Assembly: GCA_951406725.2 (NCBI GenBank)
Contig: OX597817.1
Coordinates: forward strand, 166,904,001-166,968,000
Origin: Octopus vulgaris
Lineage: Eukaryota
Reading direction: 5' to 3'
DNA: 64,000 nucleotides
A model generated the notes under the pieces. That model saw nothing but the letters and a program-made list of their open reading frames with translations, had not been told where the DNA came from and made no database searches. The translations under genes and the position numbers were made by a program. Position 1 is the first letter of the stretch, and the number at the start of each line of letters is the position of its first letter. This document shows positions 4,517 to 62,600 of this stretch, one piece after another.

Positions 4517-4660
4517 AATATCGGGAGGCGTTCACCATGTTTGACCGAGATAAGGATGGGAGGATTACCGCTAAGGAACTAGGGACCGTGCTGCGTTCCC
4601 TGGGTCAGAATCCGACCGAAGTAGAGCTTAGAGATATGATTAATGAGGTTGACATTGATG
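4517..4660 (+). CDS. Calmodulin-like gene, internal coding exon (EF-hand 1 and start of EF-hand 2 loop)
   Basis: Pyrimidine tract + tttcag acceptor, 144 bp, gt donor at 4661; encodes (E)[47 protein letters not shown](G); size and phase match the canonical calmodulin exon. Confidence 0.95.
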
Positions 4661-16886: not shown

Positions 16887-18940
16887 TGTGTGTATGTGTG
16901 TGTGTGAGTAGGTGTGCGTGTATGTATGTGGGTAGGGATGCATGCGTGTGTGTGGGTATTATGTATACATACGCACGCACACACACGAAACACGCCCACA
17001 CACACGAAGCACGCTCACACACACAACACACAAACAATACAACGCAAGCCTATGGGGCCGACCAACCTCCAGCACGCGCTAGGGCGCGCGGGCCCCCGAA
17101 CAACCCGCTCCACGGGAACCGAGGATCCATCAACCAAAACCAGAAAGCAGAAATGAGGGCGGGCTGCCTGGATGCAAATGGGTGTATGTGTGTGTGCATT
17201 CGTGTAAAGGTGTGCATGTGTAGGTATGTATGTATGTGTGTGTGCATACATGTAACTGTGCATGTGTGTGTGTGTATGTAAGTATAGGTGTGTGAAGTAT
17301 GTATGTGCTATGTGTGTGTGTGTGTGTGTGTATGTATTTGCGTATGTATGTGTGTATGTATGTATGTATGTATGTATGTGTGTGTGTGTGTGTAAGTATG
17401 TATGTGTGTGTGTATGTATGTATGTGTGTATGTATGTGCATGTTGGTTTGTATGTTAGTGTTTGCATGTATGTCTATAAGTATGTGTGATTAAATGTGTG
17501 AATGTATTTACGTAGATGTGTATACGTATGTGTGTGTGTGAACAGGCGTGTGGGAGGTAGGTATGTGTGTGTGTGGGGGGGTGTTTATCCGAAAAAAAAA
17601 AACCTTAAGAGGAGGGGGCTGTGTTAAGTCCGTGTGGGGTAGTGGTTTGTAGGGTGAAGATGTAGCGTTGCTCCAAGTGGAGCCTAGAATGTGGACGACC
17701 ATTGTGGGGGGCGAGACCAAACACTGAGATGTCATCTAGGGAATGGCTGGCCGAGCGGAAGTGGCGTGCGACGGGAGAAAAAGAGTGTAGGCGAACGTCC
17801 CTCAAATGTTCAGTGAATCGGTCGGACAACCGGCGTCCCGTCTGTCCTACATACAGCATCCCGCATAGGTTGCATTTAATGCAGTAAATAAGGCCAGACG
17901 AGGTGCACGTAAAAGAGTGCCTAATACGTACAGTTCGCCGGTTGGAGCCGGTGACAGCAGTGGTGTTGGTGATGAAGGGGCAAGTGTTGCAGCGGGATCT
18001 GTAGCAAGGGAATGATCCGTGTGGGGCTGAGGGGGAAGGAGAGAGAGTGCAGTGGACCAGGAGGTCACGTAGATTCCGGGCTCGTTTGAAGGAGGACAGG
18101 GGTGGGTTAGGGAAAATGGGGCGGGTTGTGGGATGAAGCTGGAGGCGACGGAAGGCACGTAGTATCTTGCGACGAAGAGGTAGAGTAGAGGGGGGAAAGG
18201 AGGGGGAAGGGGGTGCGGTTGGGGGTGGGTGGGGGTAAGTAGACAGGGCGGTGGTGCGGTCGATGCGACGGGCGCGGGTGAGGGCATTAGAGATGAGTAT
18301 GGGTGGGTAACCTCGGAGTCTGAACAGGCGGGCCAGGTATTGAGATTGGGTCTCGAAATCCTGGTCGCGGCTGCACAAACGTCGGAGGCGGAGGAACTGG
18401 GAGTAGGGGATGGCTCGTTTGGTGTGGAAGGGGTGGGAGGAGGAGAAGTTGAGATAGAGGTGGGAATCCGTAGGTTTAAAGAAGGCGGTGGTGGTGTGAG
18501 AGTTGGAGGGGTGGTCGATTCGGAGAGAGATGTCAAGGAAGTTGACAGAGGTGTTGGAGATGGTTGAGGTGAATTGTAGGGAGGGGTGAAAGTTGGAAAG
18601 GAAAGAGATGAATTGGCAGAGAAGTTCACGGGAAAGGGAGGTGGCACTTATGCAGTCGTCTATATAGCGACCGTATAGTTCGGGGGTCGGCCCAGAGAAC
18701 TGGGAGAATACTTGGGCCTCAATGTAGCCAAGAAAGAGATTGGCGGAATTGGGGCCCATCCTAGTTCCCATCGCGACCCCGGACACCTGTTGGTACGTTT
18801 CCCCGGCGAACGTGAAACAGTTGAGGGTGAGGACGAGCTCAGCCAGGCGGAGAAGGTGGGGGTGCTAGGGGTGGGGTCAGGACGACGGTCGAGGAAGTGT
18901 TGGAGGGCTAGGAGACCGTCATTGTGGGGAATCACTGTAT
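14662..18940 (-). mobile_element. Penelope-like retroelement 1 (5' truncated): RT + GIY-YIG, long (CA)-rich 3' region, terminal pLTR with a degenerate hammerhead
   Basis: Coding region 17605-18935; terminal segment 14662-14860 is homologous to solo copies at 33955 and 50987; (TA)n at both ends. Linking the terminus to the ORF is inferred. Confidence 0.75.
17605..18935 (-). pseudogene. Penelope RT C-terminal half + GIY-YIG endonuclease (frameshifted)
   Basis: GVAMGTRMGPNSANLFLG, RYIDD, KPTDSHLYLNFSSSHP, CxxxRCxTC, GLIYCIKC..YVGQTGRRLSDRFTEH, PHGLN. Confidence 0.93.
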
Positions 18941-18995
18941 ATATATATATATAAGTATCTGAAAGAATGGAGTTGAACGACTAGTTATCAAATAT

Positions 18996-19090
18996 CCTTT
19001 ATTCTCGACATATGTTTCGAAGGCTGCATATTCCTAATTCCGAAGGAATAAGGAGTACATTATGCAGATTTCTCTTCAAGAAAATCAAGG
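18996..19090 (-). ncRNA. Hammerhead copy in the other pLTR with a core C3>U change (TTGAAGA)
   Basis: Reverse complement of 21286-21380 with a few substitutions. Confidence 0.7.
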
Positions 19091-19648
19091 AAACTTAAGT
19101 CGACATCAAAATGCACAAAAAACTTTTAGCTGACCGCTCTCAAGGAGCCCATCGCGATAATGAGTGTCTCTTTATAATGAGTGACGTCAGAGTGGCTGAA
19201 TGTAGAAGAATCTAGAAGTTTCTAAAGGTTCAAGAGTTCAAACGAAGTAGGAGGAGGGAGGCATAAGAATAGTAAGGTGAGAGAGTGCAGGTCAAAAGAA
19301 TGGTGGCTTTAAATGATTTCTTTTGTGAATGAGTGCCTGTGTGTGTGACTGTATATAATTGTCTTAATGTGTGTATGTGTGTGTCTGAATGCGTAATTGT
19401 GTTTGTGGATGGGTAGAAGTCAGAAAACTGACAGCTGTGAGTTGAAAGGTCTGTATCTGTGTGTTCGATTATGTTTACTGTAGGGAAAGGAAAGTAGATA
19501 GCGAAAGGGAGAACGAATCGGGCGAGGTGAGAGGCAACGCAAGAATGGATAGTAGTAATTGGGAATATAAGAAAATCTTTTTTGACTATTGGGGTGAAAT
19601 ATAGCTAAAAAAATTCGGGGGAATTCGAGGGGTTATCTATATTAGTCA

Positions 19649-20816
19649 CTATTTATATGAATGAAAGGTGTGTCTTTTCCAGTGTAAGCACCTGTAGGAT
19701 CTTTCGACGATCGTGTTTATTAAAGGGCCTTTGGCGAACAAAATATGAAAAAGTTCGGAATTACAGATGCCACAAAATTTTCTGCCTTTATCAAACGGGA
19801 AGGACACCGACAAAATGGACCATTCGAGCTTGAACGTAGTGTTATTGTTCTTCAGACGCCATACTAATTTGCTTAGCCCCGTGCTGTGTTGCTTTCTCTT
19901 ATCTCTGAAAGTGGAATAATGGTTGGAGACTTTTTGGGCTAATTTAGAAGAGGTTGCGCCAATATAGAAGTAGACATCGGTTCCAGAAGAGATTTTGCAT
20001 TGGTAAGTGGTGTTTCTAATTTTGGAATTTTTGGATAAGAACTTTAATCTGTTGGGGTTGGTGGTTTCCGATACTAACACAGAGTTTTTATTATTGTGAT
20101 AGGTGTAAAAATTGTTGCTGGTTTTGGCTACGATACTATTCATCTTTAGTAATTATCATTACTATTAGTTATAATATCGTCGGCAAATTCCCTGGCTATA
20201 GGAATGCTGCGATTGTTATCATCAATAATATAACTGTTATTAAGAATGCTGGTACTATTACCACTAACACCACCACTGTTAATAATCTGGCTAATGTTAT
20301 TATCATTATAACTATTGCTAACGCTAATGCTGCTATGAATGTTGCTAATATTCATACTACTTCTATTATTATTATTATTGTATGTTACGTTGGAATGGGT
20401 AAGGGCGGTGTCGCTACTCATGGGTGGAGAGACCCTATTTAGCAGCTTATTATTGTGGGAAGCTATTATCTGCGAAAGATTTTTAGTATTTGAGAATGCT
20501 ATTCTTACTTTATGCGAATTTATAGTGGAGTAGTATCTAGAATTCCTAGGAAAATTCTTAGTAACGGCTTCACGGAATTGTAAAGGGAGATTAGACCTGA
20601 TTTGTCTCCCGAAAGGAATCACAAACCAGATATAGTTTTTTTTTTGTTCTTGGAATGGCTGAGAGTGTTGACATTTACATTAAAGGGTATCTTTCTGTGT
20701 TGTAGAATGGGTTTTGGTTTACGCTGGCCTCCCCTGGTCCGTAAGTTATTATTGTAAAATATATTTGTGTCGACGTTGCTAGAGCTGAAATCACTATTTA
20801 TGTTATCATATATCAT
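19649..20816 (-). pseudogene. Penelope C-terminal linker + GIY-YIG endonuclease remnant
   Basis: KVRIAFSNTKNLSQIIASHNNKLL; TYQC..FYIGAT..NHYSTF..STGLSKLVWRLK..EWSIL..CGICNSE..RCLH; contains stops and frameshifts. Confidence 0.82.
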
Positions 20817-21285
20817 ATATCGATCCGGCCCATCCTAAACTAATATCTGCCCATCAAGATAAGATAACTTCTAATAATAATATAAATAACATAAATAGTG
20901 ATTTCAGCTCTAGCAACAGATACAGACCTTTCAACTCACAGCTGTCAGTTTTCTGACTTCTACCCATCCACAAACACAATTACGCATTCAGACACACACA
21001 TACACACATTAAGACAATTATATACAGTCACACACACAGGCACTCATTCACAAAAGAAATCATTTAAAGCCACCATTCTTTTGACCTGCACTCTCTCACC
21101 TTAGTATTCTTATGCCTCCCTCCTCCTACTTCGTTTGAACTCTTGAACCTTTAGAAACTTCTAGATTCTTCTACATTCAGCCACTCTGACGTCACTCATT
21201 ATAAAGAGACACTCATTATCGCCATGGGCTCCTTGAGAGCGGTCAGCTAAAAGTTTTTTGTGCATTTTGATGTCGACTTAAGTTT

Positions 21286-21380
21286 CCTTGATTTTCCTGA
21301 AGAGAAATCTGCATAATATACTCCTTATTCCTTCGGAATTTGGAATATGCAGCCTTCGAAACATATGTCGAGAATAAAGG
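21286..21380 (+). ncRNA. Hammerhead ribozyme in a Penelope pLTR
   Basis: ccttgattttc CTGAAGA gaa..ctgcata...tatgcag..ttc GAAA C ATAT GTC gagaataaagg; cleavage after GUC (21369). Confidence 0.85.
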
Positions 21381-21591
21381 ATATTTGTTAACTAGTCGTT
21401 CAACTCCATTCTTTCAGATACTTATAATTTCAAAATAAACATACAAATTTCCGCACGAAGACGCGTAGTCTATGCCCTAGCGACGTAGCTTCAACGGTGT
21501 TCTTTCTGATGTGAATTTGCTACCCAGGTATCGGTTATCTTTCGAATTATCCTTAATAAGATAATTCATTCAATTACTCAAATATATATAT

Positions 21592-26059: not shown

Positions 26060-26590
26060 ATTATTTTTTTCCCTTCATAGACTGGCCCTTGATCGGGCGG
26101 ACCTATAGATGAAAGTCTCTCCATCCGTGTCAATTTCATATATTTTCAATGCAGTATATCTAGTACTACATTATCCAATGCAAACTTATTTATTTTTAAA
26201 TGACTAAGTGTGATTTGGGGAGATTCTGCTGCTATTTTATTTTTTTCCCTTCATAGACTGGCCCTTGATCGGGCGGACCTATAGATGAAAGTCTCTCCAT
26301 CCGTGTCAATTTCATATATTTTCAATGCAGTATATCTAGTACTACATTATCCAATGCAAACTTATTTATTTTTAAATGACTAAGTGTGATTTGGGAATTC
26401 TGCTGCTATTTTATTTTTTCCCTTCATAGACTGGCCCTTGATCGGGCGGACCTATAGATGAAAGTCTCTCCATCCGTGTCAATTTCATATATTTTCAATG
26501 CAGTATATCTAGTACTACATTATCCAATGCAAACTTATTTATTTTTAAATGACTAAGTGTGATTTGGGGAGTTTCTGTTGCTATTTCTAG
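26060..26590. repeat. Three near-identical ~175-bp tandem direct repeats
   Basis: cccttcatagactggcccttgatcgggcgg at 26071, 26247 and 26420. Confidence 0.9.
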
Positions 26591-27329
26591 CAGGTCGAGT
26601 TACCTTAAAGGGGCCACCCTTCCCACATTGGTACGGTAAGAGATTATGGAAGACTGCAAACACATGGAATTGATTTTCTTTCAGAATTAATCTTTTAATG
26701 GAAACTTCGACGAAAACCCTCTCAAGGATAATCCACAACGGCGCAAGAAGGAAAGATGTTTATTTGTAAACCTATCCTGAAGTGATGCCAGTTTATCTGT
26801 GAGTTCAACAACACGGAGTTGTTTTCTTTTGTTCAGTGGACTTCTTTCCCAACCGCTTGTTGTTGCCTTCTTGTATTATTCTACGAAGGTGGCATCAAAG
26901 GGTCAGGAAAGGGAACCTTATTCTGCAACAAACACAAGACCTTACAATGTACAATACATAAAGATTTACCACAAGATTTACTACGAGATTTACAATGATA
27001 ATTCAAATGGAATTAGCACAGAAGTCTACGAACTGATGTCCGTCAATATTTATAAAGAGATCACTAGATTATAAATCAGTATGTTTTTTTAACAATTCTT
27101 TGTAACTTTGATACAAGGCTAGAAATTTTGAGGGGAGGGGTTCAAATCGAATATATCGTCTCTAGTACTTGGCTGATATTTTATTTTAACGACACCGAAA
27201 GTATGGAAGGCAAAGTCTATTTCGGTGATATTTGAACTCAGAACATAAATCCGGTAGAAATGCCGTTAAGCATTTTCACTGACGTGAAGACGAGTCTGCC
27301 AGCCCACCCACATAACATTTTTGTTAATT

Positions 27330-28280
27330 CTTTTTACTATAGATACAAGACCCGAAATTTGGGGTGGGGAAGTTTAGTCATTTACATCGGTCCCAGTATT
27401 TAACTGGCATTTATTTCATCGACCCCAGGTAAAGGCGACCTCAGCGGTATTGAACTCAAAACGTAAAGACAGACGAAATACCTATTTGTTTATTACCCAC
27501 AAGGGGCTAAACACAGAGAGGACAAACAAGGACAGACAAACGGATTAAGTCGATTACATCGACCCCAGTGCGTAACTGGTACTTATTTAATCGACCCTGA
27601 AATGATGAAAGACAAAGTCGACCTCGGTGGAATTTTAACTCAGAACGTAGCGGCAGGCGAAATACCTATTTTTTATTACCCACAAGGGGCTAAACACAGA
27701 GAGGACAAACAAGGACAGACAAACGGATTAAGTCGATTATATCGACCCCAGTGCGTAACTGGTACTTATTTAATCGACCCCGAAAGGATGAAAGGCAAAG
27801 TCGACCTCGGCGGAATTTGAACTCACAACGTAACGGCAGGCGAAATACCTATTTCTATTTCTTTATTACCCACAAGGGGCTAAACACAGAGCGGACAAAC
27901 AAGGACAGACATAGGTATTAAGTCGATTACATCGACCCCAGTGCGTAACTGGTACTTAATTTATCGACCCCGAAAGGATGAAAGGCAAAGTCGACCTCGT
28001 CGGAATTTGAACTCAGAACGTAACGGCAGGCGAAATACCTATTTCTATTTCTTTATTACCCACAAGGGGCCAAACACAGAGCGGACAAACAAGGACAGAC
28101 ATAGGTATTAAGTCGATTACATCGACCCCAGTGCGTAACTGGTACTTAATTTATCGACCCCGAAAGGATGACAGGCAAAGTCGACCTCGGCGGAATTTGA
28201 ACTCACAACGTAACGGCAGGCGAAATACCGCTAAGCATTTTGTCCTTTATGCTAGCGATTCGACTAACACGTTGCCTTCA
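27330..28280 (-). mobile_element. Head-to-tail tandem array of SINE bodies (~180-bp units)
   Basis: About 4-5 copies of acccacaaggggctaaacacagag...gtcgacctcggcggaatttgaactc. Confidence 0.85.
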
Positions 28281-36245: not shown

Positions 36246-36805
36246 GGATCTTTTCGGTTTGAACGGCAGTTTTTAAAAATAAGTTCCACGTAACTAAACA
36301 CTTTTAAACTTCGTATACTGGTAGAATGTGTTTATACAACATCTTTTTCTCTTGGCTTTATTGAGAAAATTCTATAGTTTGTAAGATATGGATCTTTTCG
36401 GTTTGAACGGCAGTTTTTTAAAATAATTTCCACGTAACTAAACACTTTTAAACTTCGTATACTGGTAGAATGTGTTTATACAACATCTTTTTCTCTTGGC
36501 TTTATTGAGAAAATTCTATAGTTTGCAAGATACTTGTTGGTTTTTTCTTCAATTTCTGCAATTTCAACCAATCAATGATGTCTATTGACCTGAAAACATT
36601 CTGTGCCGTATGAAAACGTCCTTCGTTTAAGAAACAGATTGGGTTTATTTACATTTGTGAAGAAAAGAAGATACCCTTCCCCCCACCCCTAACCCTAACC
36701 CTAAAATAGATTGAAATGCAATAAATCGATACTAGGGTCATAATTATGGGTGACAATTTCATATGATACCGCTAGAAAAAACTGCCGTTCAAACCGAAAA
36801 GACCA
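36246..36805. mobile_element. Second MITE copy with a duplicated left end
   Basis: TSD gatgaaag at 36238-36245 and 36806-36813; left ~145 bp repeated from 36390. Confidence 0.88.
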
Positions 36806-37663
36806 GATGAAAGTTCTACATAATGGTACCCAGCCGCATAAATGGTGATATATTCGTTTAAGTTTAAATGAACCTAAGACTACATTATCCTATATATACA
36901 CGTTTCTTTCCATTTTTTAAAGACGATAAACTGTAAATTACTGAAGATATAGCTTCTATTTCTATAGGGCTGAGCGACCTGGGAGAGGCCATTTTTGGGG
37001 TAACATACAATGAAGCTTTATTTTTGAGTGATCTTGTGGCTTGCAACAAAGACACCTTTATCCCTATATTAGTCTAATGGTTTGTTACCTTTTAACTACG
37101 TAAGGTTCAGATCTTCCCTTTGATGAAGCCATTCAGATAACTTCTTTAGCCCCCATAAAATTCGTTTCAGTATCAAATTTTTACTTGATAATATTGTCTC
37201 CCTTGCGTTGTAGCATAGTGTATACTCAGTGAATTAGTGTGCATATGCATGGTGTCTTTGAGTATGTATATGTCCGTATGTATGTATGTATGTATGTATG
37301 TATGTATGTGTACCTTTGCTTGTCTTTGTGTGCCTGGTTGCATGTGTGTGTGTGTATCCGTGCGTGTGTGTGTGTGTATGTGGGTGTGTTTGTGATAGTC
37401 TTTATTCGATTGTTGAGTGACAACTAGTTATAATATAGAACAGACGATTGACTATTGAATTGAAGCAGGTTGTAGGACTGCATAAATAATTAAAAGATTT
37501 TCTATTTGTTTTAACAATAAGTGTTCCGTCAGCTGAACTGTCAACTCATTGTATTATCCTTTAGATGGTTGAGTATTCCAATGACACTTGTACACTCAAT
37601 GTAATCCTCAGGCAGAATCAGTGTGACACACTGTGCGACAGGAGCAGATTTTCAGATTATATA

Positions 37664-38262
37664 TTTCTTTACTACCCACAAGGGGCTAAACACAGAGAGG
37701 ACAAACAAGGACAGACAAACGGATTAAGTCGATTACATCGACCCCAGTGCGTAACTGGTACTTAATTTATCGACCCCGAAAGGATGAAAGGCAAAGTCGA
37801 CCTCGGCGGAATTTGAACCCAGAACATAACGGCAGACGAAATACGTATTTCTTTACTACCCACAAGGGGCTAAACACAGAGAGGACAAACAAGGACAGAC
37901 AAAAGGATTAAGTCGATTACATCGACCTCAGTGCGTAACTGGTACTTAATTTATCGACCCCGAAAGGATGAAAGGCAAAGTCGACCTCGGCGGAATTTGA
38001 ACCCAGAACATAACGGCAGACGAAATACGTATTTCTTTACTACCCACAAGGGGTTAAACACAGAGAGGATAAACAAGGACAGACAAAAGGATTAAGTCGA
38101 TTACATCAACCTCAGTGCGTAACTGGTACTTAATTTATCGACCCCGAAAGGATGACAGGCAAAGTCGACATCGGCGAAACTTGAACCCAGAACGTAACGG
38201 CAGACGAAATACAGTTACGCATCTCGCCCGGCGTGCTAACGTTTCTGCCAGCCCGCCGCCTT
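37664..38262 (-). mobile_element. Tandem trimer of a SINE body
   Basis: 3 near-identical ~184-bp units; a single head at the right end. Confidence 0.85.
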
Positions 38263-40999: not shown

Positions 41000-43900
41000 C
41001 AACAACAACAACAACCTCAACAACAACAACAGGATGAACCACTCCTTGATTCATCTACAATGGCCGATTTGCTAAATGAAATCGATTGACCCCCAGTCAT
41101 CAGGGTCACACAGCAGGAAGTGCATTCCTTTCACTGCCCCAGCAGCTCAATCATCATCATTGTCAACACCATCTCCTCTGCTTACTACTACTAGTACTAC
41201 TCCCACTATATATCGACAAACATCTTTGTCTTGGAATCGACCTCCTCAATCATTACCACCGTCAACATCTCTTCTACCTACTACTACTACTACTAACTTA
41301 TCTCAAGGAATTTACCTCATCTCCCGGGGACTCGTCGGACATTTAAAGATAACCACTCACATAAAAATAGCCGCGGCCACACACACCTGCGGTTCCCTAG
41401 ACAGGAAACCACCTTTCTCGATATTTTTATAGAATGAATCTATGCTGATAGAAGAACTGAAAACATCGACATCACCCAAACTACAATTACACTACCAGCC
41501 ATTAAAAGCAATCAAAACAAATCACCAAAACAATTCCAGCCATTTCCCACTCAACATTTCTGCTTAATGCACAAGGCATCAGCCCATTCCCGGGACTCGT
41601 CGGACATTTAAAGATAACCACTCACATAAAACCACAGTCACCTTTCTTCGTCTTCACTGACTTCTTAGTGACCTCCACTTGGAAGCCGAGGTGAAAGTTA
41701 AAAGAACTGGACATGCTGATCGTGTTGGCAGAAGAAAGGTGGGACTGCCATTTATGTCCATGATTCAAAAGCCATGAACATATTTTCGAACCATCCACTC
41801 TCGCCTCAACATTTGCTGCTTAATGCCCAAGGCATCAGCCCTTCCACCAATACACAGTAGACAGACCACCCCACCCACACACCCATCCAAACCACAACAG
41901 CATAAAGTGTTTCATTCAGCAGTGTCAACCTGACAACATTTTAATGATGGGAGATTGTTTCCCATTCGGGTTGACTGGTCATAAAAGTGGGATTCTTTAT
42001 GTCCATGAACCACTCATGCCATGATATTTGTCAGAACCGAAGCATGTCATAACAACATGTATAGTATGTATGGTATGTATATGAGGAATGTAACACTGTG
42101 TTTTTCAGCAGTGTCAACCTGACAATGATGATGGGAGATTTCAACCTTCCCGGGGTTGACTGGTCTACAAACAGTCTGCCGTGAATATTCTTCAACCCCT
42201 GACAGGGAGGCAGTGGAATCGCTTCTTGACTTCATGGATGATTTCTTCTTGTCCCAACTGGTACTCGAACCAACGAGATGTAAAAAAACGTCTTAGACTT
42301 AATTTATACACAATCACATATACTATCCACAATAGATAAACCCTACTTGACCATGATCAATAATGATCTTGCACAAGTCGATTGGTCCTTCACGTACACA
42401 TACACACCCACTAACATCAAAAAGTCCTGGCAGTCACTTGTAGACACCATCACGAACATATGTGCAAGACACACCCCATTAAGATCTGCAAACAAATCTA
42501 AGTGTCGAATCCCTAGAAATAGAAAATCTCTCATAAGGAAAATTAAAAGAATCAACAAAAAGATCAACATGCTGAAATACTGTCAACAGCAACACACCAA
42601 CCTGACTGCCATCTCGTCGCTAGAGATTAAAAAACATAAACTCCAAAACAACATGATGTCTATCATCAATAGTCAGCGAAGAGCTGAAGAGGCCTGGGCC
42701 ATTGAGAAGATCAAACTCAATCCCAAAGTGTTCTTTTCATTTGCAAAAAAACACAGAGTCACTGGTTCTACTGTTGGCCCTCTGATTGATGAAAATGGTA
42801 TTCTTCAAGACAATGCCAAAACCATGGGAGAAATATTGCAGAAACAATATTGCTCTGTTTTCAGCAATCCTGATATGACTGATCTGGGCTGTATCAGTGA
42901 TGTTACTCCCCAATACACTTTATCGGACGTAACATTTGGCGCTCCTGATGTCTTAGCAGCAATAAAGGAAATGAAGCATAATTCAGCAGTAGGTCCCGAT
43001 AGGTTCCCTGCTTGTGTCTTGAAGATGTGTCAAAACCAACTTGCACTCTAGCCAATCTGTGGCGGAACTCATTGGATGCTGGATATATACCAGAAGACCT
43101 TCTATCCCAGTCTGTTGTCCCAGTTTTCAAAAAGAAACAAATCGCTTGCCGTGAATTACCGTCCAATCTCACTCACCTCTCATATCATCAAGGTATTTGA
43201 GAGGGTGCTGAGATCGCGTATGACTCACTTCCTTGAGAGTCATAATATGCTGAACCCCAACCAGCATGGATTCCGTAATGGGAGAGATTGCCTGACGCAG
43301 CTACTGCATCATTTTGATGACATTTTGAGAGCCTTGGGAGAGGGTTCCAACACTGATGTCATCTACCTTGATTTCAGCAAGGCCTTTGACAGGGTTGATC
43401 ATAAGATCCTTCTGAGAAAGCTGTCCAATATTGGTGTCACTGGAAAGCTGCTGCAATGGATCAAGTGCTTCCTCTCTAACAGAACCCAACATGTTGTAGT
43501 CGAAGGAGTCAAATCCAGCCCAGCCAAAGTCAGCAGTGGTGTCCCACAAGGCACTGTGTTGGGCCCACTTCTCTTCATCATCTACATAAATGATATTACT
43601 GACACCATCAAACACAGCAACATCAGAACCTTCGCTGATGATTCCAAGCTCCAGAAGGTCATCAATGGCGTGGATGACCGAATAAACCTTCAGTCAGACC
43701 TACTGGCTGTTGTCCAATGGGCGGAAAAGAATAACATGTTGCTAAATGAAGACAAATTCGAACTGATCCACTTTGGAAGGGAGGACGCTCTGAAACTCCC
43801 ATACTCTCTTCCTTCTGGAGAAATTCTCATGGCATCCAACAACATCAGAGACCTGGGAGTAACAGTGGACAACAACATAAGCTGGGCTACACATATAAGC

Positions 43901-44527
43901 AGCAAAGTTGACATGGCCCGCAGAATGTGTTCCTGGATTCTCAGAACCTTCCAGTCGAGAGATTCCCACGCTATTATCCTTCTCTTCTCCACTTTTGCCC
44001 GACCCCACCTTGAATACTGCTGTCCACTGTGGTCTCCCTACACAAAACAAAATATTATGAGAATTGAAGCTCCCCAAAGGTCAATCACAAAAAAGATAGA
44101 TGGCATGTCAGACCTTGACTACTGGGGTAGACTAGAGAAGCTGAAATTGTATTCACTCCAACGACGCCGTGAACGCTACATTATCTGTATGATGTGGAAA
44201 ATATTCCATCAGCACTGTCCGAATGATGTTGGCATCACCTTCAAAATGCATCCAAGGCTTGGACCACGTGCCATCCGTCCACAACAAAAATCTATCGCAT
44301 CATACGGCACAACTATTTCATATCTCTTCAACATACACCAGGACACGTCAAAAAAGAAACTATATAGTACCGGACAAACCTTCCACACCCGGATATGTCT
44401 CCGCAAACAATAACTCTCTGCTCGAATGGGCCTAAATCCTGAACTGAAAGACTTCGCCAGGTGGTGCTATTAAGTTAGACATGGCCTGGGCCAATACTGG
44501 CCAAAAACCTTTCTAAGTTATTCTAAG

Positions 44528-47560: not shown

Positions 47561-47634
<74 letters not shown>

Positions 47635-47635
<1 letters not shown>

Positions 47636-47725
47636 TCAAAATAAGCAACAAGAATAACTTCGGTAATTTGGTACGATCGTTTCACGCTACAAATTACCGA
47701 AGTTATTCTTGTTGCTTATTTTGAT
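47635..47725. repeat. 36-bp perfect inverted repeat enclosing half of a hammerhead
   Basis: Arms 47635-47670 and 47690-47725; spacer on the - strand reads GAAAC GATC GTA. Confidence 0.8.
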
Positions 47726-47997: not shown

Positions 47998-48099
47998 TAC
48001 CAACTAGTTTCATGATCTCAAGTTATACTGTATTGAAAAGCTCAAATAAAGGCGAAATAACGTTATCTATAGCTACTTGGACACGATATATGCATACAT

Positions 48100-48134
<35 letters not shown>

Positions 48135-48321
48135 CTAAGTAATTAAGGGTTTAGCAACGAATTGCCTCACCACACACCGAATTTAGAAATAGCAGTCAAA
48201 GAGTTATAGCTATTCTTTCTACTAAAAGGGAGATCTCAGTAAAAACACACCACTTGAAAGGCAAACACAGACAGGTAAGAGAGAATGAAATGACGGCAAT
48301 CTATCATACAATTTTAAGTCA

Positions 48322-48412
48322 CCTACGGACGTACGTTTCGAAATTAAGTTTTTGGAAAGCATAAGAATTAGATAATCATGTCTTACCCAACTTCTTTTCT
48401 CATCAGCGTAGG
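48322..48412 (-). ncRNA. Hammerhead ribozyme (family C, inverted copy)
   Basis: Reverse complement of the copy-1 motif with minor loop-II changes. Confidence 0.87.
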
Positions 48413-48642
48413 ACACTACAATTATGAATAATTGTTACTGATAGCCATATTTCATCCCAGTAAATGACCACAGCATCTTGTCTTGGCTACACGCGGGTGG
48501 GAAGGGGTTGGTGACACAAACTTTCATTCACACTTTGAATTTGGTGATACTGGTAACGGCTTTAGCTCGCTCTGATACTGAGTTGAGATGATGCCTTCTA
48601 GTATCTCGAAATTTAATATACAATTATTCATAATTGTAGTGT

Positions 48643-48733
48643 CCTACGCTGATGAGAAAAGAAGTTGGGTAAGACATGATTATCTAATTCTTATGCTTTC
48701 CTAAAACTTAATTTCGAAACGTACGTCCGTAGG
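48643..48733 (+). ncRNA. Hammerhead ribozyme (family C, copy 1)
   Basis: cctacg CTGATGA gaaa...tttc GAAA C GTAC GTC cgtagg; cleavage after 48727. Confidence 0.9.
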
Positions 48734-49225
48734 TGACTTAAAATTGTATGATAGATTGCCGTCATTTTATTCTCTCTTACCTGTCTGTGTTTGCCTTTCA
48801 AGTCCTGTGTTTTTACTGAGATCTCTCTTTTAGTAGAAAGAATAGCTATAACTCTTTGACTGCTATTTCTAAATTCGGTGTGTGGTGAGGCAATTCGTTG
48901 CTAATACCTTAATTACTTAGTATTACTTAAACTTTCCTCGAATGAGGCTTTTACATGCCTAGATCTACTTGGTGTAATTAATGATTATTCCAAGTTAATT
49001 AATTTCACCCTATATTGTTACTGATAGCCATATTTCATCCCAGTAAATGACCACAGCATCTTGTCTTGGCTACACGCGGGTGGGAAGGGGTTGGTGACAC
49101 AAACTTTCATTCACACTTTGAATTTGGTGATACTGGTAACGGCTTTAGCTCGCTCTGATACTGAGTTGAGATGATGCCTTCTAGTATCTCGAAATTTAAT
49201 ATACAATTATTCATAATTGTAGTGT

Positions 49226-49316
49226 CCTACGCTGATGAGAAAAGAAGTTGGGTAAGACATGATTATCTAATTCTTATGCTTTCCTAAAACTTAATTTCGA
49301 AACGTACGTCCGTAGG
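49226..49316 (+). ncRNA. Hammerhead ribozyme (family C, copy 2)
   Basis: Same motif, +583 bp; cleavage after 49310. Confidence 0.9.
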
Positions 49317-49808
49317 TGACTTAAAATTGTATGATAGATTGCCGTCATTTTATTCTCTCTTACCTGTCTGTGTTTGCCTTTCAAGTGCTGTGTTTTTACT
49401 GAGATCTCTCTTTTAGTAGAAAGAATAGCTATAACTCTTTGACTGCTATTTCTAAATTCGGTGTGTGGTGAGGCAATTCGTTGCTAATACCTTAATTACT
49501 TAGTATTACTTAAACTTTCCTCGAATGAGGCTTTTACATGCCGAGATCTACTTGGTGTAATTAATGATTATTCCAAGTTAATTAATTTCACCCTATATTG
49601 TTACTGATAGCCATATTTCATCCCAGTAAATGACCACAGCATCTTGTCTTGGCTACACGCGGGTGGGAAGGGGTTGGTGACACAAACTTTCATTCACACT
49701 TTGAATTTGGTGATACTGGTAACGGCTTTAGCTCGCTCTGATACTGAGTTGAGATGATGCCTTCTAGTATCTCGAAATTTAATATACAATTATTCATAAT
49801 TGTAGTGT

Positions 49809-49899
49809 CCTACGCTGATGAGAAAAGAAGTTGGGTAAGACATGATTATCTAATTCTTATGCTTTCCTAAAACTTAATTTCGAAACGTACGTCCGTAGG
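49809..49899 (+). ncRNA. Hammerhead ribozyme (family C, copy 3)
   Basis: Same motif, +583 bp; cleavage after 49893. Confidence 0.9.
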
Positions 49900-50160
49900 T
49901 GACTTAAAATTGTATGATAGATTGCCGTCATTTCATTCTCTCTTACCTGTCTGTGTTTGCCTTTCAAGTGCTGTGTTTTTACTGAGATCTCCCTTTTAGT
50001 AGAAAGAATAGCTATAACTCTTTGACTGCTATTTCTAAATTCGGTGTGTGGTGAGGCAATTCGTTGCTAAACCCTTAATTACTTAGTATTACTTAAACTT
50101 TCCTCGAATGAGGCTTTTACATGCCGAGATCTACTTGGTGTAATTAATGATTATTCCAAA

Positions 50161-50215
<55 letters not shown>

Positions 50216-50285
50216 ATATACACATGCACATATATATGTTTACTCTTTTTCCTTTTGTTTTTCCTCTTCCTTCTTTCTTCTACAG

Positions 50286-50528
50286 GTAACGGCACCATAG
50301 AATTCAACGAGTTTCTCGAAATGATGATGAAGTGTAAATCGGAAACAAACGAGCGGCAAGAAGTAACAGACGCCTTCAAAGTGTTCGACACGAACAAGGA
50401 TGGTTTCATTAATGCTTCTGAGTTACGTCACGTCATGATGAACTTAGGCGAAAAACTCACCGATAAAGAGGTGGAGGATATGATCAGAGAAGCCGACGCA
50501 GACGGTGACGGCCGAATAGACTATGAAG
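50286..50528 (+). CDS. Calmodulin-like gene, coding exon (rest of EF2, EF3, EF4)
   Basis: Long pyrimidine tract + tacag acceptor, 243 bp, gtaaag donor; [14 protein letters not shown]...[47 protein letters not shown]; phase 1 joins in frame with 4517-4660. Confidence 0.95.
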
Positions 50529-51774: not shown

Positions 51775-51803
51775 AATTTATTCAGATCCTGATGGCCAAA
51801 TAG
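51775..51803 (+). CDS. Calmodulin-like gene, last coding exon (EFIQILMAK*)
   Basis: ttctttgcag acceptor, 29 bp to TAG; same size as the canonical last calmodulin coding exon; missed by the ORF track. Confidence 0.9.
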
Positions 51804-57724: not shown

Positions 57725-59626
57725 TATATGCACTTTGTATATATAAAAATTATTATATATACATATTTATATATAGATACACACACACATATATAAATTA
57801 ACCCAATAAATATCTGATTCATAATATATGTTGTCATGATTGAGTGGTCGTTGTGGCGATGATAATTCTCTCTATGAATGCAGACAAACGTAGAAAGTGA
57901 GAGTGTGTGAAAGCGCTGTGGAAGGCAGGGAGGGGGGATAACGGACGCTGTGAAACGACGTTATAAAGAGAAAGTGAATGTAAGGGAGGTAGACGCTGTG
58001 AAACGACGTTATAGATAGAAAGTGAAAGGAAGGGAGAAAAGTGAGTGAGTGATGGAGGAAGACAGATACATAAAAGAATGAGAGTGTTGGATGTTTTGTT
58101 TGTTGGACCAATGTATTAAGGTAGTATTGTTTTATTGTTTTAAAACGAAAGAGGCAATGTGTTTGTTTCAAAAATTAAAAAAATCTGTTATAGTGAATGA
58201 AATTAGAATTCACACCCAGCTTAGTTTTGTAGAAAGAGTATCACGATGTGAACTCATGAGTTGGAAGTTTGACTGAGAGAGTTTATATGGTGACACATGC
58301 CAGTCCTTTCGACACCACCTAAACAATGGAATAGTGTATAAAATGTAATTAACAACTCATTCACTTTATGAATGTCTTATGTTAGCGAAAAAACAATAAC
58401 TTGACAAAACCGTTTAATGGAGACGTAGAAGGAATCGGAAAATGAGGAATAAAGAGAATGAGTTGGATCAAATGTTTGCAAACATCTGAACCCAATGTTC
58501 TTTATGAACCATGTTCTTTTTAATGTCTTTATTTTCAAGAATGAAGAGATAATGAAGAGGTGCAAAATAAAAAATCAAGCAAAATTTCATGACTTACAAT
58601 CAGTTTTCTTTTGTCAGAGCCTCTGATAAACCACGTTCCTTGTGCGCTCATGATTGCCAAGAATGAAGAGTTTATGTGGATTTCCAACTCGAGAACAGGC
58701 TACGTACAATTGACCATGACTGAAAACCGGTTGTGACAGGTTAATGCCTACAATGTCCAGTGATTGTCCCTGTGACTTGTTGATTGTCATCGCGAAGCAT
58801 AGTTTTATCGGAAATTGAAAGCGTTTAAACTGAATAGGAACATCAGAGGGTGAAATACTCATTTTATGTATCATTTTGATTGTTCCTACAAATGGTCCAC
58901 TCAAAATTTCAGCAGTTATAACATGGCATTGAATCCTCCTAATAACCATTCGGGTTCCATTGCATATTTCAGGCGTTTCCATATTTCTGAGCACTATGAT
59001 TGGGGCACCAACTTTCAAACACAAATGATGAGGTGGAAGTCCCGGAGGTGTTAGCTTGTTGAGTAGCTCGGGTGGATATTTGACTGCATCATTCTCATCT
59101 TTATTTGTATCGATGGACATGAAAGAAACTATCTCACCAGGATTCATATCAAGTACTTGTTTATTTGTAGCATGAGCTGTTGTATTATGAGGCGATAGAA
59201 TAGCTCTTGCCCTTAGCCAATCGAGATCCTGGAAGTTGGTTTCGACGTCAGGTAAAACGGCTCTTATAAGTTCTTCTACATTTGGAACGAAATTCCCAAA
59301 AGGCAACCGAATATGCTCATCATCAACGAAAGGCAAAACTCCATCACCAAGATCTAATAGGTGTTTTGCGAAAGCCTCAGACTCCACATCACCATGTAGG
59401 TGGACTCTCATGTTTGTTTGAAGATGGCGACTGATAACACTGTGCCACACAAAAGAATGCTTTATACATGCATTAACCTCATCAGCTCTAGTGCCTGCTC
59501 GGACAACAGGAAGAGTTTGTCGAAAATCTCCTGCCATGAGAAACGTAGCTCCACCCATTATTTTTGTATTGTGACGCAAATCTTGGAGAGTTCTGTCAAG
59601 AGCCTCAAACATGGCCTTATTACTCA
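57596..59626 (-). mobile_element. 3' part of host Helitron (Helitron 2): PIF1 helicase C-terminus, 3' region and terminus
   Basis: Helicase 58614-59626 (GDFRQTLPV, NMR, CNGTR, FAMTINKSQGQS, HGQLYVACSRV); end acccgc-gcgtaga-gcgggt hairpin + caccttcagCTAG at 57596. Confidence 0.88.
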
Positions 59627-62600
59627 CTAGCAGCATAGCCCGGCGTTGCCCGGGTATGTAAGAGCCCCTAGTAGGCAACGACTAATCCCAATGTAGTCCT
59701 TTCCCTCCAGGGAACGAAGGTGCATGTGGACGTTGCAATGTCTTGTCTTCACTGGAATACTTCTGTATATACGATGTTCCTAGCTGTCCGTTTGGGCGAA
59801 AACATGAAAACATCATTGCGCCTCCCAACGCGTGAACAGCCCACGTAGAGTTGACCGTGGGCGAAGCACTGTTCGCCCAAATGTAACCCAGCGACTTGTA
59901 GCGTTTGGCCTTGGGATTTATTGATGGACATTGCGAAGCAGAGTTTAACAGGAAACTGAGAACGCCTGAAGTGGATTGGTAGGTCAGCGCCCGACGGTTG
60001 AAGGTGCATCCGTGGAATGAAGACGTCCTCTCCCTTCCCACAACCGGTAAGTATTGTGGCCGTTATTAAATGTGGTGCCAAATGTTTCACAACCAAACGT
60101 GTGCCGTTGCACTGTTTAGGTGGAACCAAATTCCTGATGAGCATAATGGGCGCACCGACTTTTAACTTCAGGATGTGTGGTGGCAGGCCTGGCGGTTCAA
60201 GTGAATTCAGGAATTCAACAGGATAATCGGCAAGCTGGGCGGGGTCTGCTGTCCTATCTATAGATTTGTAGACGTGGACATCACCAGGAATAGCTTCAAG
60301 TAGCTGGATATTGATGGAGTTGACGGTTGTATTTTTGGGTGCGAGAATAGCTCTGCCTGCCAGCCATTTTAGGTCGCGTAAATTGTTTTGTAGGTCGTGG
60401 AAGACAGCGTCCCGGAGGCTAGCAGGGGTATCGACAATGGTGCAAAGTGAGTCCAATTGAACGTAGCCATCCGCATCAGACAGCATCCTATTTTCACCGA
60501 GCGATAAGAGGTCCCTGGAGAATGCAGCGGATCCGCTGTCACCAATTAACTGCGCGCGCATGTTAGTTTGGAGGTGCAAGGGCCGCACATGTGCCCAAAG
60601 AGCTGACGACTTAAGGCACGCGCGCACGGCATCGGCACGGGTTCCTTTTGGAATAACAGGTAGAGTCTGCCTGAAGTCTCCTGAAAGAAGTAAAGTTAAT
60701 CCTCCCATGGGGGCCGTAGAGTCTCTGATGTCTTGCAGGACCTGTCCAGTGCCTCAAGGGCGCCTTTGTGTGCCATAGTGCACTCGTCCCATACGATGAG
60801 TTTGCATCTGCGCAGAATGTCGGCCTGTTCTGAGTTCTTGGCGATGTTGCAGATAGGTGACTCGGACTTTGCCAGATCGAGCGGGAGTCTGAAGGCAGAG
60901 TGGGCGGTTCTGCCACCCGGAAGCAACGTGGCCGCGATACCAGAGGAAGCTACAGCCAGGGCAATGTCCGTGTTGCGTCTGACCTCTGCCAGAATTAGTT
61001 TAGTGACGAAGGTTTTGCCAGTGCCGCCGGGTGCATCAAGGAAGAAAATCCCCCCACGTTGCTGTCTGACAGAGTCTACGATGGTGTTGTAGGCTATGCG
61101 CTGGTCTGGAATCAGCCGTGGTTCATTATCTTGGACGTACTGGTGCAGTTCCTCAATGCAGTAGGAAGTTTCGCGTAACAATTCAGCAGACATAACATTG
61201 GCGTGTTCACGTGTGGGTGGTGGAAGGCCGTACTCTGTTAAAGCAGACCCACCCATATCGATGACAGCGTCTTCGAGTTGAATGAGCGCAAAATTGTAAA
61301 TGAAGTTGGTGAACGTGATCTCGGCGGAAGGGCAGTGTTGCTGAGCCGTACGTAAGAAGTCGTGCGACATGTCATCCCTGTATTTCATCCAGAGACTTAG
61401 TGGATCACTAAGCTGACATTTTTGAAGAAGGATTGCGAAAAGATGTCGTAGGGCCGAATGCGTTTGCAGTAAAGCACCCTCTGCCATCGTGGCGTCCCAC
61501 TGGGAGTCATCCTCTAGAAGGCCAAGTCTCATACATGCTTCCCTGAAGGTGTCGCACAGAACCCCATTGACGGTACGTATATTGGCGAAACCTGTTGGAC
61601 CAGTGACCTCATGTAGAAGGAGACGGAGGTAGAAGCATTCTTGCTGGTTTGGCGGGATGTTGTAAACTCGACCCAGGCAGGAGTCAAACTTGACGCCTGG
61701 GAAGCTTTCGACGTTTTTGCCGGATTTCCGTCGGACCCAGGTGTTTTTAGACCACACGAAGTACGATGGGACCTGTGGGTACAAAAGCGTTCGAGCGAAG
61801 TCATCACGTTGGCATAATTTGAAGAAACCAGTCAACGTTGTGTCTTTAGGGCTGGTGGCTATGTGCACAGCACTTTGCTCTGTGAAGTAAATCCGCTGTC
61901 CATTTTCCAAGTGTACAGCAAGCTGCACCACAGCCGGGTGTCTCTGATGGAGCGGGAAGCCGTAAATGCGCCAAAACGCTTCGTTGCTGCTGAGGTACCG
62001 GCCAGCCAAGTAGTTGGACATTTCGTCGCGACTGGTGGTCCTCTGGATGCTGAACATGGCAGCATCGCTGCCTTTGTTGATATATTTGCAGACATATTGT
62101 ATTGACCTGATGGAGCTGCAGAACTCAACGTTGACGTGGGCTTTGAATATCTTCGACAGGAGAGGACAGTAGGGGACAATGTAGCTGTTGTCCACTTGAT
62201 GTCGCCCAACCGTAATCGTGCGGCCTCCATTGGCTGGACTCCTTCGTTTGTACAGCGGATACCCATCGCCGCCTGTTTGAGTCTCCAAAGTGAACCGTTT
62301 AGGGAATCCCTTTGAGCAGGCTAATCCGTTTTTGTAGCATGGTGTGTTGGCGTAATTTGGTCCACAGGGCCCGTGTACCATGGTAGTGCGGACAATTTCG
62401 TAGAGTCCGGGGTCCTCATCGGAGTCAGGAATCTCGGCGGAAATGAATTTGTCAATGTCATTAGTCTCGATTTTATGAGTGAGCCAAATTAAGATGTGAG
62501 CATGTGGCAAGCCCCTCTTTTGCCACTCGACCGAAAACATGTGGCACCTGACATGCCCGAAAATCTGACCCTTAACTATCAAATCCTTCATTTTGCCCAA

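Follow-up and report, generated by a model that had tools for sequence, protein, structure and literature searches.

The DNA analysed here, called the window below, is a stretch of 64,000 nt from Octopus vulgaris (GCA_951406725.2, contig OX597817.1, positions 166,904,001 to 166,968,000 of the forward strand). On its + strand lie exons of a calmodulin-like host gene: one upstream of a 45.6-kb intron (4517..4660), an EF-hand exon (50286..50528) and the last coding exon (51775..51803). Towards the end of the intron stands a tandem array of 583-nt hammerhead units, and the acceptor AG, which ends at 50285, follows the array end by 118 nt, in agreement with the distance of about 120 bp reported in the initial annotation. 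Contigs from sequencing runs X2 and X13 connect the 4517-4660 exon to 50286; the X13 contig additionally links 50528 to the last exon, and an X4 contig covers the exon exactly. Three RNA-like runs show the host gene to be expressed and spliced; since contigs join the flanking exons, the array can be placed in sense orientation near the end of the 45.6-kb intron of an expressed gene. For the unique intron sequence of this gene, no contig was found in the runs examined. An A>G difference in the host exon at window 50365, seen in runs X4 and X13, may represent an allele or RNA editing.

The window also holds other repeats. Broken frames in the same host intron (42284-44413, +) are, judging from their motifs, what we take to be a LINE-type reverse transcriptase (RT); tandem arrays of 144-190-nt units at 26061-28229, 36246-36532 and 37662-38212 are presumably SINE-like, and the convergent frames of 355 and 334 aa at 58614-60753 we assume to be PIF1/Helitron-type helicase-like. 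A short near-perfect inverted repeat beside a TA tract (47634-47725) is possibly a minimal two-armed insertion of another family.

The hammerhead block consists of a forward and an inverted arm. The forward arm (48431..50167, +) has a period of exactly 583 nt and amounts to 2.98 tandem units; in unit positions, where 1 is the first nucleotide after the predicted cut, it reads 287-583, 1-583, 1-583 and 1-274. It contains two complete monomers, 48728..49310 and 49311..49893 (both +), which by the predicted cuts are the exact 583-nt cut-to-cut units announced in the initial annotation. The inverted arm (48132..48435, minus strand, 304 nt) comprises unit 476-583 plus 1-196 and is 98-99% complementary to the forward arm; the copy is young, its arms differing at 2/304 sites. 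At their 5' ends the arms overlap by 5 nt (48431..48435). Remnants of the target flank the block, (TA)n-rich on the left (48086..48134) and (TA)n on the right (50166..50212). When the 583-nt unit is doubled, its longest stop-free frame is 69 aa, which leaves it without a protein-coding frame; no Penelope protein match was found inside the unit, and its GC content is 0.36, that is, below 50%. The initial annotation had described three near-identical ORF-less 583-bp units within (TA)n, with an inverted partial copy carrying a fourth hammerhead: the period, the absence of an ORF, the inverted copy and the (TA)n on both sides all stand, but the third unit is 12 nt short. Five private changes common to the two inner units are absent from the outer unit and the inverted arm, which suggests that DNA was duplicated later or that the template was mixed; the third unit may be such a later DNA-level duplication.

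Four type-I hammerheads are present in the block. Three are on the + strand, 583 nt apart, at 48643..48733, 49226..49316 and 49809..49899, with predicted cuts after 48727, 49310 and 49893, respectively; the fourth, in the inverted arm, is at 48322..48412 on the minus strand, with its predicted cut at 48328. They are built of a 6-bp stem I, CUGAUGA, a G-C pair at the base of a 60-nt stem II, GAAA and GUC, and stem III is one pair with a palindromic loop. A motif scan recovered all four, together with two in a Penelope element (six in the window, versus 0.03 per window in 30 block-shuffled windows), but an Rfam search with E up to 1 reported none of the array hammerheads and only sub-threshold, microsatellite-driven miRNA matches. 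The description of these ribozymes as perfect holds for core and stems but not beyond: the usual loop 1-loop 2 contact was not identified in the array hammerheads, and we restrict the word to core and stems because stem II is long.

In local folding, stem I has a probability of 0.94-1.0 and the monomer stem III only 0.003-0.004, versus an intermolecular duplex of -11.2 kcal/mol through the palindromic stem III of two copies. A two-copy (dimer) mechanism of cleavage is described for metazoan hammerheads in PMC4209133, and the array energies match it; the predicted dependence of cleavage on dimers, put forward in the initial annotation, is consistent with these values. A report on Xenopus retrozymes gives 8/9 dimers as failing to cleave in vitro (10.64898/2026.07.22.740005). 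As a whole, the linear monomer (49311..49893) folds with a z of -5.9, 0/100 shuffles being equally stable, and the circular monomer with a z of -3.0 to -5.8 in 7/7 units (20 shuffles each); the monomer is therefore, by prediction, highly self-paired, better than its shuffles.

The repeat belongs to a dispersed family. A 21-nt hammerhead word has 549 exact matches in the genome versus 0 for the reversed control, giving a family of at least 549 hammerhead copies genome-wide, and a search of the octopus genome with the unit returned 2,571 candidates, of which 40 were scored, with full-length matches at 94-100%. Two-unit and single-unit copies are not the only forms: locus L061 (G000:C8:3133797-3139511) is an array of about 10 units with two alternating haplotypes and recombinant units, the pattern that unequal exchange would produce. 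At L062 (G000:C11:47596388-47599990), identical insertions with identical flanks stand 2.7 kb apart, either a local duplication or an assembly repeat, and L045:6-620 is occupied by another, different hammerhead tandem, spaced at 533 nt and equipped with a palindromic stem III of its own.

A Penelope ORF is joined to the repeat in 0/26 distinct insertions, drawn from the first 30 of the 549 hammerhead-word matches and not selected for length, and enters the 5' side of the repeat in 0/150 loci; an ORF with RT and GIY-YIG between terminal repeats, the mark of an autonomous Penelope, was likewise seen in 0/26 and 0/150. Because none of the 26 unselected insertions carries a Penelope ORF, the element is not merely an attached pLTR, the reading that the initial annotation reserved for copies always found on such an ORF, but a non-LTR retrozyme. 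These counts, with the Penelope-type two-end footprint described below, support its proposal of a non-autonomous element that carries hammerheads and depends on a Penelope-type RT for its movement. At L140:8-1711, a repeat copy at a very short AT run has its 3' end within a Neptune-like ORF.

The unit is also present in sequencing runs under four organism labels. Contigs of four runs cover 30/30 bins of the unit, mostly as diverged subfamilies, and cover a neighbouring repeat fragment too; in 3/4 runs the cut junction is bridged by at least 31 nt, which fits a circle and an uncleaved tandem alike. Three of the four runs are RNA, since they hold spliced host mRNA; RNA of the family thus occurs in at least three RNA-like runs, a finding that fits passive read-through as well. 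For a Penelope-style intron, with a donor-like site just after the cut, no joint was seen in the unit contigs, which cannot show absence.

How the copies end was determined on 59 arm ends from 39 blocks at the best-scoring loci. The outer (3') ends fall at unit 196 in 22/59, at 299 in 8/59 and at 306 in 9/59, with others nearby, and none (0/59) lies at the ribozyme cut; the 5' ends of the copies are scattered, unlike the 3' ends. An inversion is present in 20/39 blocks and (TA)n abuts 50/59 arm ends. The preferred ends share 2-5 nt with the TA tract, and few of the 26 TAT/ATA sites of the unit are used. The view that the ribozyme cut sets the insertion ends gives way here to two internal RT start points, a proximal one at about 196 and a distal zone at 274-306. 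The ends are, moreover, paired. Two-armed insertions, pooled from 81 loci with blocks <150 nt or <85% identity left out, combine a proximal (165-205) with a distal (270-310) end in 36/42 cases; six have one atypical end and none (0/42) has the same end type twice. The window copy obeys this one-of-each rule, the inverted arm ending at unit 196, the proximal start point, and the forward arm at 274, within the distal start zone. Arm divergence is 1.3% within a locus versus 6.4% between loci. We infer, as the simplest reading of the paired ends, that one RNA was copied by two RTs, one per target strand. The traits of Penelope-type insertions (5' truncation, an inverted 5' arm, a tail at one end and a microsatellite target) are all present, and non-TA 5' flanks are common among one-armed copies.

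A fold around the start points is shared with sister families. These are co-linear and ORF-less, have units of 573-602 nt and stand at ~85%, 65% and 52% identity; across this span of 50-85% identity the hammerhead pairing appears to be kept through compensatory changes, as stem I is altered on both sides and the palindromic stem III is retained. Double-sided changes affect 25/54 consensus pairs, stems I and II included, in a count over 14 units of three related groups made without a shuffle control. In these 14 units, two elements hardly vary: a stem of unit 147-157/227-235 and, within it, a GCAA-N4-UUGC hairpin; the proximal start point is enclosed as well. In the window this fold stands at 50040..50128 (+), with further + strand copies in the array beginning at 48874 and 49457, and a copy of the conserved start-site motif lies in the inverted arm at 48154..48181 (minus strand). 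Genome-wide, the motif occurs 2,481 times versus 0 for its control. Among 77 copies sampled, 33 have the start of the TA tract 8-29 nt past the motif and 22 have it 113-127 nt past. When diverged relatives of the 3' motif were followed, they led to further ORF-less families and to no partner element.

Candidates for the supplying protein were sought among the Penelope elements of this genome. In the window, at ~18950-21580, a two-armed, 5'-truncated Hydra-type Penelope insertion in (TA)n carries two hammerheads of the same build as those of the array, and its arms end 53 and 212 nt after the cut. Two such families follow a two-end rule of their own: in one, copies end 48 or ~200 nt past their own cut, paired in 4/4 two-ended loci; in the other, at 53 or ~212, paired in 6/6 loci with both ends resolved. 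Their ORF motifs (RWL, DKT, no CCHH and CxxC/CxH) match the Hydra clade as described in PMC8557442, an assignment made by motifs. Since hammerhead build, target and two-end rule are shared with the 583-nt family, Hydra-type elements are the best partner candidate. The start-site fold had no clear match in the folded post-cut regions of Hydra elements. Neither the unit nor the start-site motif is an integral part of a Penelope element in 103 loci of four families (38 Hydra-type A, 29 Hydra-type B and 36 GIY-YIG, mostly Neptune-like), sampled by scoring 150 of 17,359 and 150 of 6,136 candidates, a small part of the genome's copies; nor do the two Penelope fragments of the window match the unit integrally. 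The second of these (17605-18864, minus strand) is a 419-aa fragment of another Penelope-like ORF, covering the C-terminal part of the RT, with a weak GIY-YIG match.

At L012/L089 (L089:890-1810; G000:C4, about 97758900-97759800) a repeat arm is joined through an 8-nt overlap, without TA, to a two-armed fragment of a Hydra-type element; the family of that element is young, with copies that are 98-100% alike. Such TA-free repeat-Hydra junctions number 1 in 277 loci. The junction may be a template switch or, equally well, a target deletion, and as proof of partnership it was downgraded, non-TA 5' flanks being common in one-armed copies. An intact Neptune-like family of 781 aa, ending in (TA)n, is an alternative candidate partner; at L262-L267 this very young family shows 781-aa frames of equal length at many loci, and the motif scan found no canonical hammerhead in it.

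Taken together, we think it fairly probable that the block is a single young retrozyme insertion, made by a Penelope-like protein that copied a predicted circular monomer from two internal starts. In the mechanism that we propose, a tandem copy would be transcribed, by its own promoter or by read-through; two hammerheads would pair via their palindromic stem III and then cut, and the released monomer would be closed into a circle by ligation. The conserved fold, roughly 150-300 nt past the cut, would be bound by a dimer of a Hydra-type Penelope protein, which would nick both (TA)n strands. Priming, through 2-5 nt of TA pairing, would take place near unit 196 for one cDNA and near 274-306 for the other; each RT would roll round the template for a variable distance, and microhomology would serve to join the two cDNA ends head to head. 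Unequal DNA exchange may later give rise to arrays of at least three units.

The form of the template decides between this reading and its closest rival. In 32 arms, chosen by the start-site motif after 50 rows had been de-duplicated by hand and with ends approximate in the diverged subfamily, 19 pass through the cut and 13 stop short of it; 8/32 are longer than one unit, and arms that extend far enough re-enter the unit itself. Arms that cross the cut imply a template that was either never cut or ligated again. Copying of cleaved linear monomers was rejected, as the expected pile-up of 5' ends at the cut is absent, a single arm (1/32) ending within 5 nt of it. An uncleaved linear multimer, transcribed from a few tandem masters and pasted in by a Penelope-type protein, could equally leave templates intact across the cut; the hammerhead would then serve for trimming or be protein-gated, and the masters would be renewed by unequal crossing-over. 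Such a scheme draws support from the anole protein, whose main substrate in vitro is uncleaved RNA and for which hammerhead mutants inserted normally (PMC11167929), from the 10-unit L061 array with alternating haplotypes, which could be a master, and from the inner units of the window, which differ from the outer unit. With a linear tandem template, however, a second pass copies a different source unit, and extra differences are expected there. Of 44 singleton differences, scored at 2,671 three-way sites in 17 loci (one of them entered from both sides), 12 fall in the second pass, 14 in the other arm and 18 in the same arm, which is no excess over one third (P=0.84). Rare alleles are common to all passes of a locus: 41 are carried by all copies of their locus versus 154 single-copy changes (80 loci, L061 excluded). 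The two arms of an insertion share one haplotype, and successive units differ no more from each other than the arms do; the window insertion is the exception, with 4/5 of its singleton differences in the second pass. Furthermore, a read-through copy of L061 would keep the alternation of its haplotypes, and at identities as low as 50% both the unit length and the hammerhead pairing are still conserved. The haplotype patterns and the read-through of the cut are likely to reflect rolling reverse transcription of the predicted monomer circle; a very young, homogeneous linear source would give the same haplotype pattern. On balance, we consider the linear multimer an unlikely template, though one to be reckoned with.

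Two further readings carry much less weight. If the unit were the pLTR of a low-copy autonomous Penelope, the copies would be its 5'-truncated products together with ORF-deleted tandem derivatives. Xenopus retrozymes do resemble pLTRs according to 10.64898/2026.07.22.740005, the hammerhead build and insertion footprint match the Hydra-type elements of this genome, and only a small part of its Penelope copies was sampled; yet the unit is unlike the terminal regions of all four Penelope families (103 loci), the ORF counts of 0/26 and 0/150 tell against it, and sufficiently long arms return into the unit (8/32 exceed one unit), which together make this origin improbable. The array might also be kept for the host, cutting or regulating the calmodulin-like pre-mRNA near its 3' splice site, as its sense orientation 118 nt before the acceptor of an expressed and spliced gene would allow. 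Against this, the copy is young (2/304 arm differences) and one of hundreds at (TA)n tracts, its 45.6-kb intron is full of other repeats, and nothing shows conservation at the site; we hold a host function to be very improbable. The calmodulin-like neighbour and the intron position are probably incidental, a product of chance, because the intron spans 45.6 kb and copies of the family occur at (TA)n throughout the genome.

Returning to the circular monomer, a broader reading can be offered more tentatively, with a chance that we put slightly short of even: the insertions would be a genomic record of rolling-circle target-primed reverse transcription, in which a circular 583-nt RNA is recognised through its fold by a sequence-unrelated Hydra-type dimer and copied from two starts onto the two strands of nicked (TA)n. 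If true, rolling-circle copying would be the integration step that the cycle of animal retrozymes still lacks, and a portable start-site module would serve a superfamily of some 2,500 copies. Re-entry of retrozymes into the genome is still hypothetical in the literature consulted, where circles are demonstrated and the RT step is not. Given exact starts, a conserved fold, a young candidate partner and the haplotype test, the RT step should therefore be reconstitutable in vitro. The 583-nt element itself is ordinary for this genome.

Literature searches listed no account of this family, of paired retrozyme start points or of an argument from haplotypes for a circular template; the supplements of PMC7229834, PMC8557442 and 10.64898/2026.07.22.740005 may list related repeats. 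A plant LTR retrozyme, with a type-III hammerhead, PBS, PPT and a 4-bp TSD, is ruled out by the type-I hammerheads, the tandem and inverted units and the (TA)n target. In the Hydra-clade Penelope elements of PMC8557442, by comparison, we find the same (TA)n targets, canonical hammerheads, 5' truncation, partial tandems and inverted 5' arm. The tail at one end only, a known Penelope trait, is shared as well, although it measures ~80-110 nt in the 583-nt family and 30-40 nt in the Hydra clade as described there. Unlike those elements, the 583-nt family is without an RT/endonuclease ORF and without similarity to local terminal repeats, among the families compared. The Chlamys MRC1-like elements of PMC8557442 are likewise non-coding and multicopy head to tail, with a Penelope-type protein as mover; as described, they share 3' sequence with their partner and are mostly without canonical hammerheads, whereas no partner-shared sequence was found for the 583-nt family.

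The Anolis element Poseidon offers the nearest biochemical parallel. In vitro, reverse transcription begins at two internal positions of its RNA, both downstream of the hammerhead, and the protein, a predicted dimer, cuts and extends both target strands (PMC11167929). In Poseidon, as in the 583-nt family, copies do not end at the ribozyme cut. According to the same account, however, Poseidon is autonomous and coding, uses a linear uncleaved template and starts at positions non-homologous to the target, whereas the 583-nt family is non-coding and its starts share 2-5 nt with (TA)n.

Coral, mussel and axolotl have tandem repeats with type-I hammerheads that are expressed as circles, Penelope being the proposed mover (PMC7229834), and in Xenopus 24/57 retrozyme families matched Repbase elements, nearly all Penelope-like (10.64898/2026.07.22.740005). 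The 583-nt family is a member of this known class, the metazoan non-LTR retrozymes, and is itself new. It is an ORF-less tandem with one type-I hammerhead per unit, a GC content below 50% and a self-paired monomer, it co-occurs with Penelope elements as they do, and its one-pair palindromic helix III is as in axolotl HHR_Amex1 (PMC7229834). The unit, called longer than typical in the initial annotation, does exceed the ~170-400 nt given for invertebrates in PMC7229834, but lies within the 51-972 bp that 10.64898/2026.07.22.740005, which links retrozymes to pLTRs, gives for animals. RNA circles are demonstrated for published metazoan retrozymes and only predicted for the 583-nt family, which, unlike their satellite blocks as described, occurs mostly as dispersed insertions of 1-2 units at (TA)n. 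To the class this family contributes an insertion footprint that can be measured and, from its haplotypes, an argument that the template was circular: the fixed paired RT starts, paired arms and per-locus haplotypes measured here have no counterpart in the retrozyme accounts compared.
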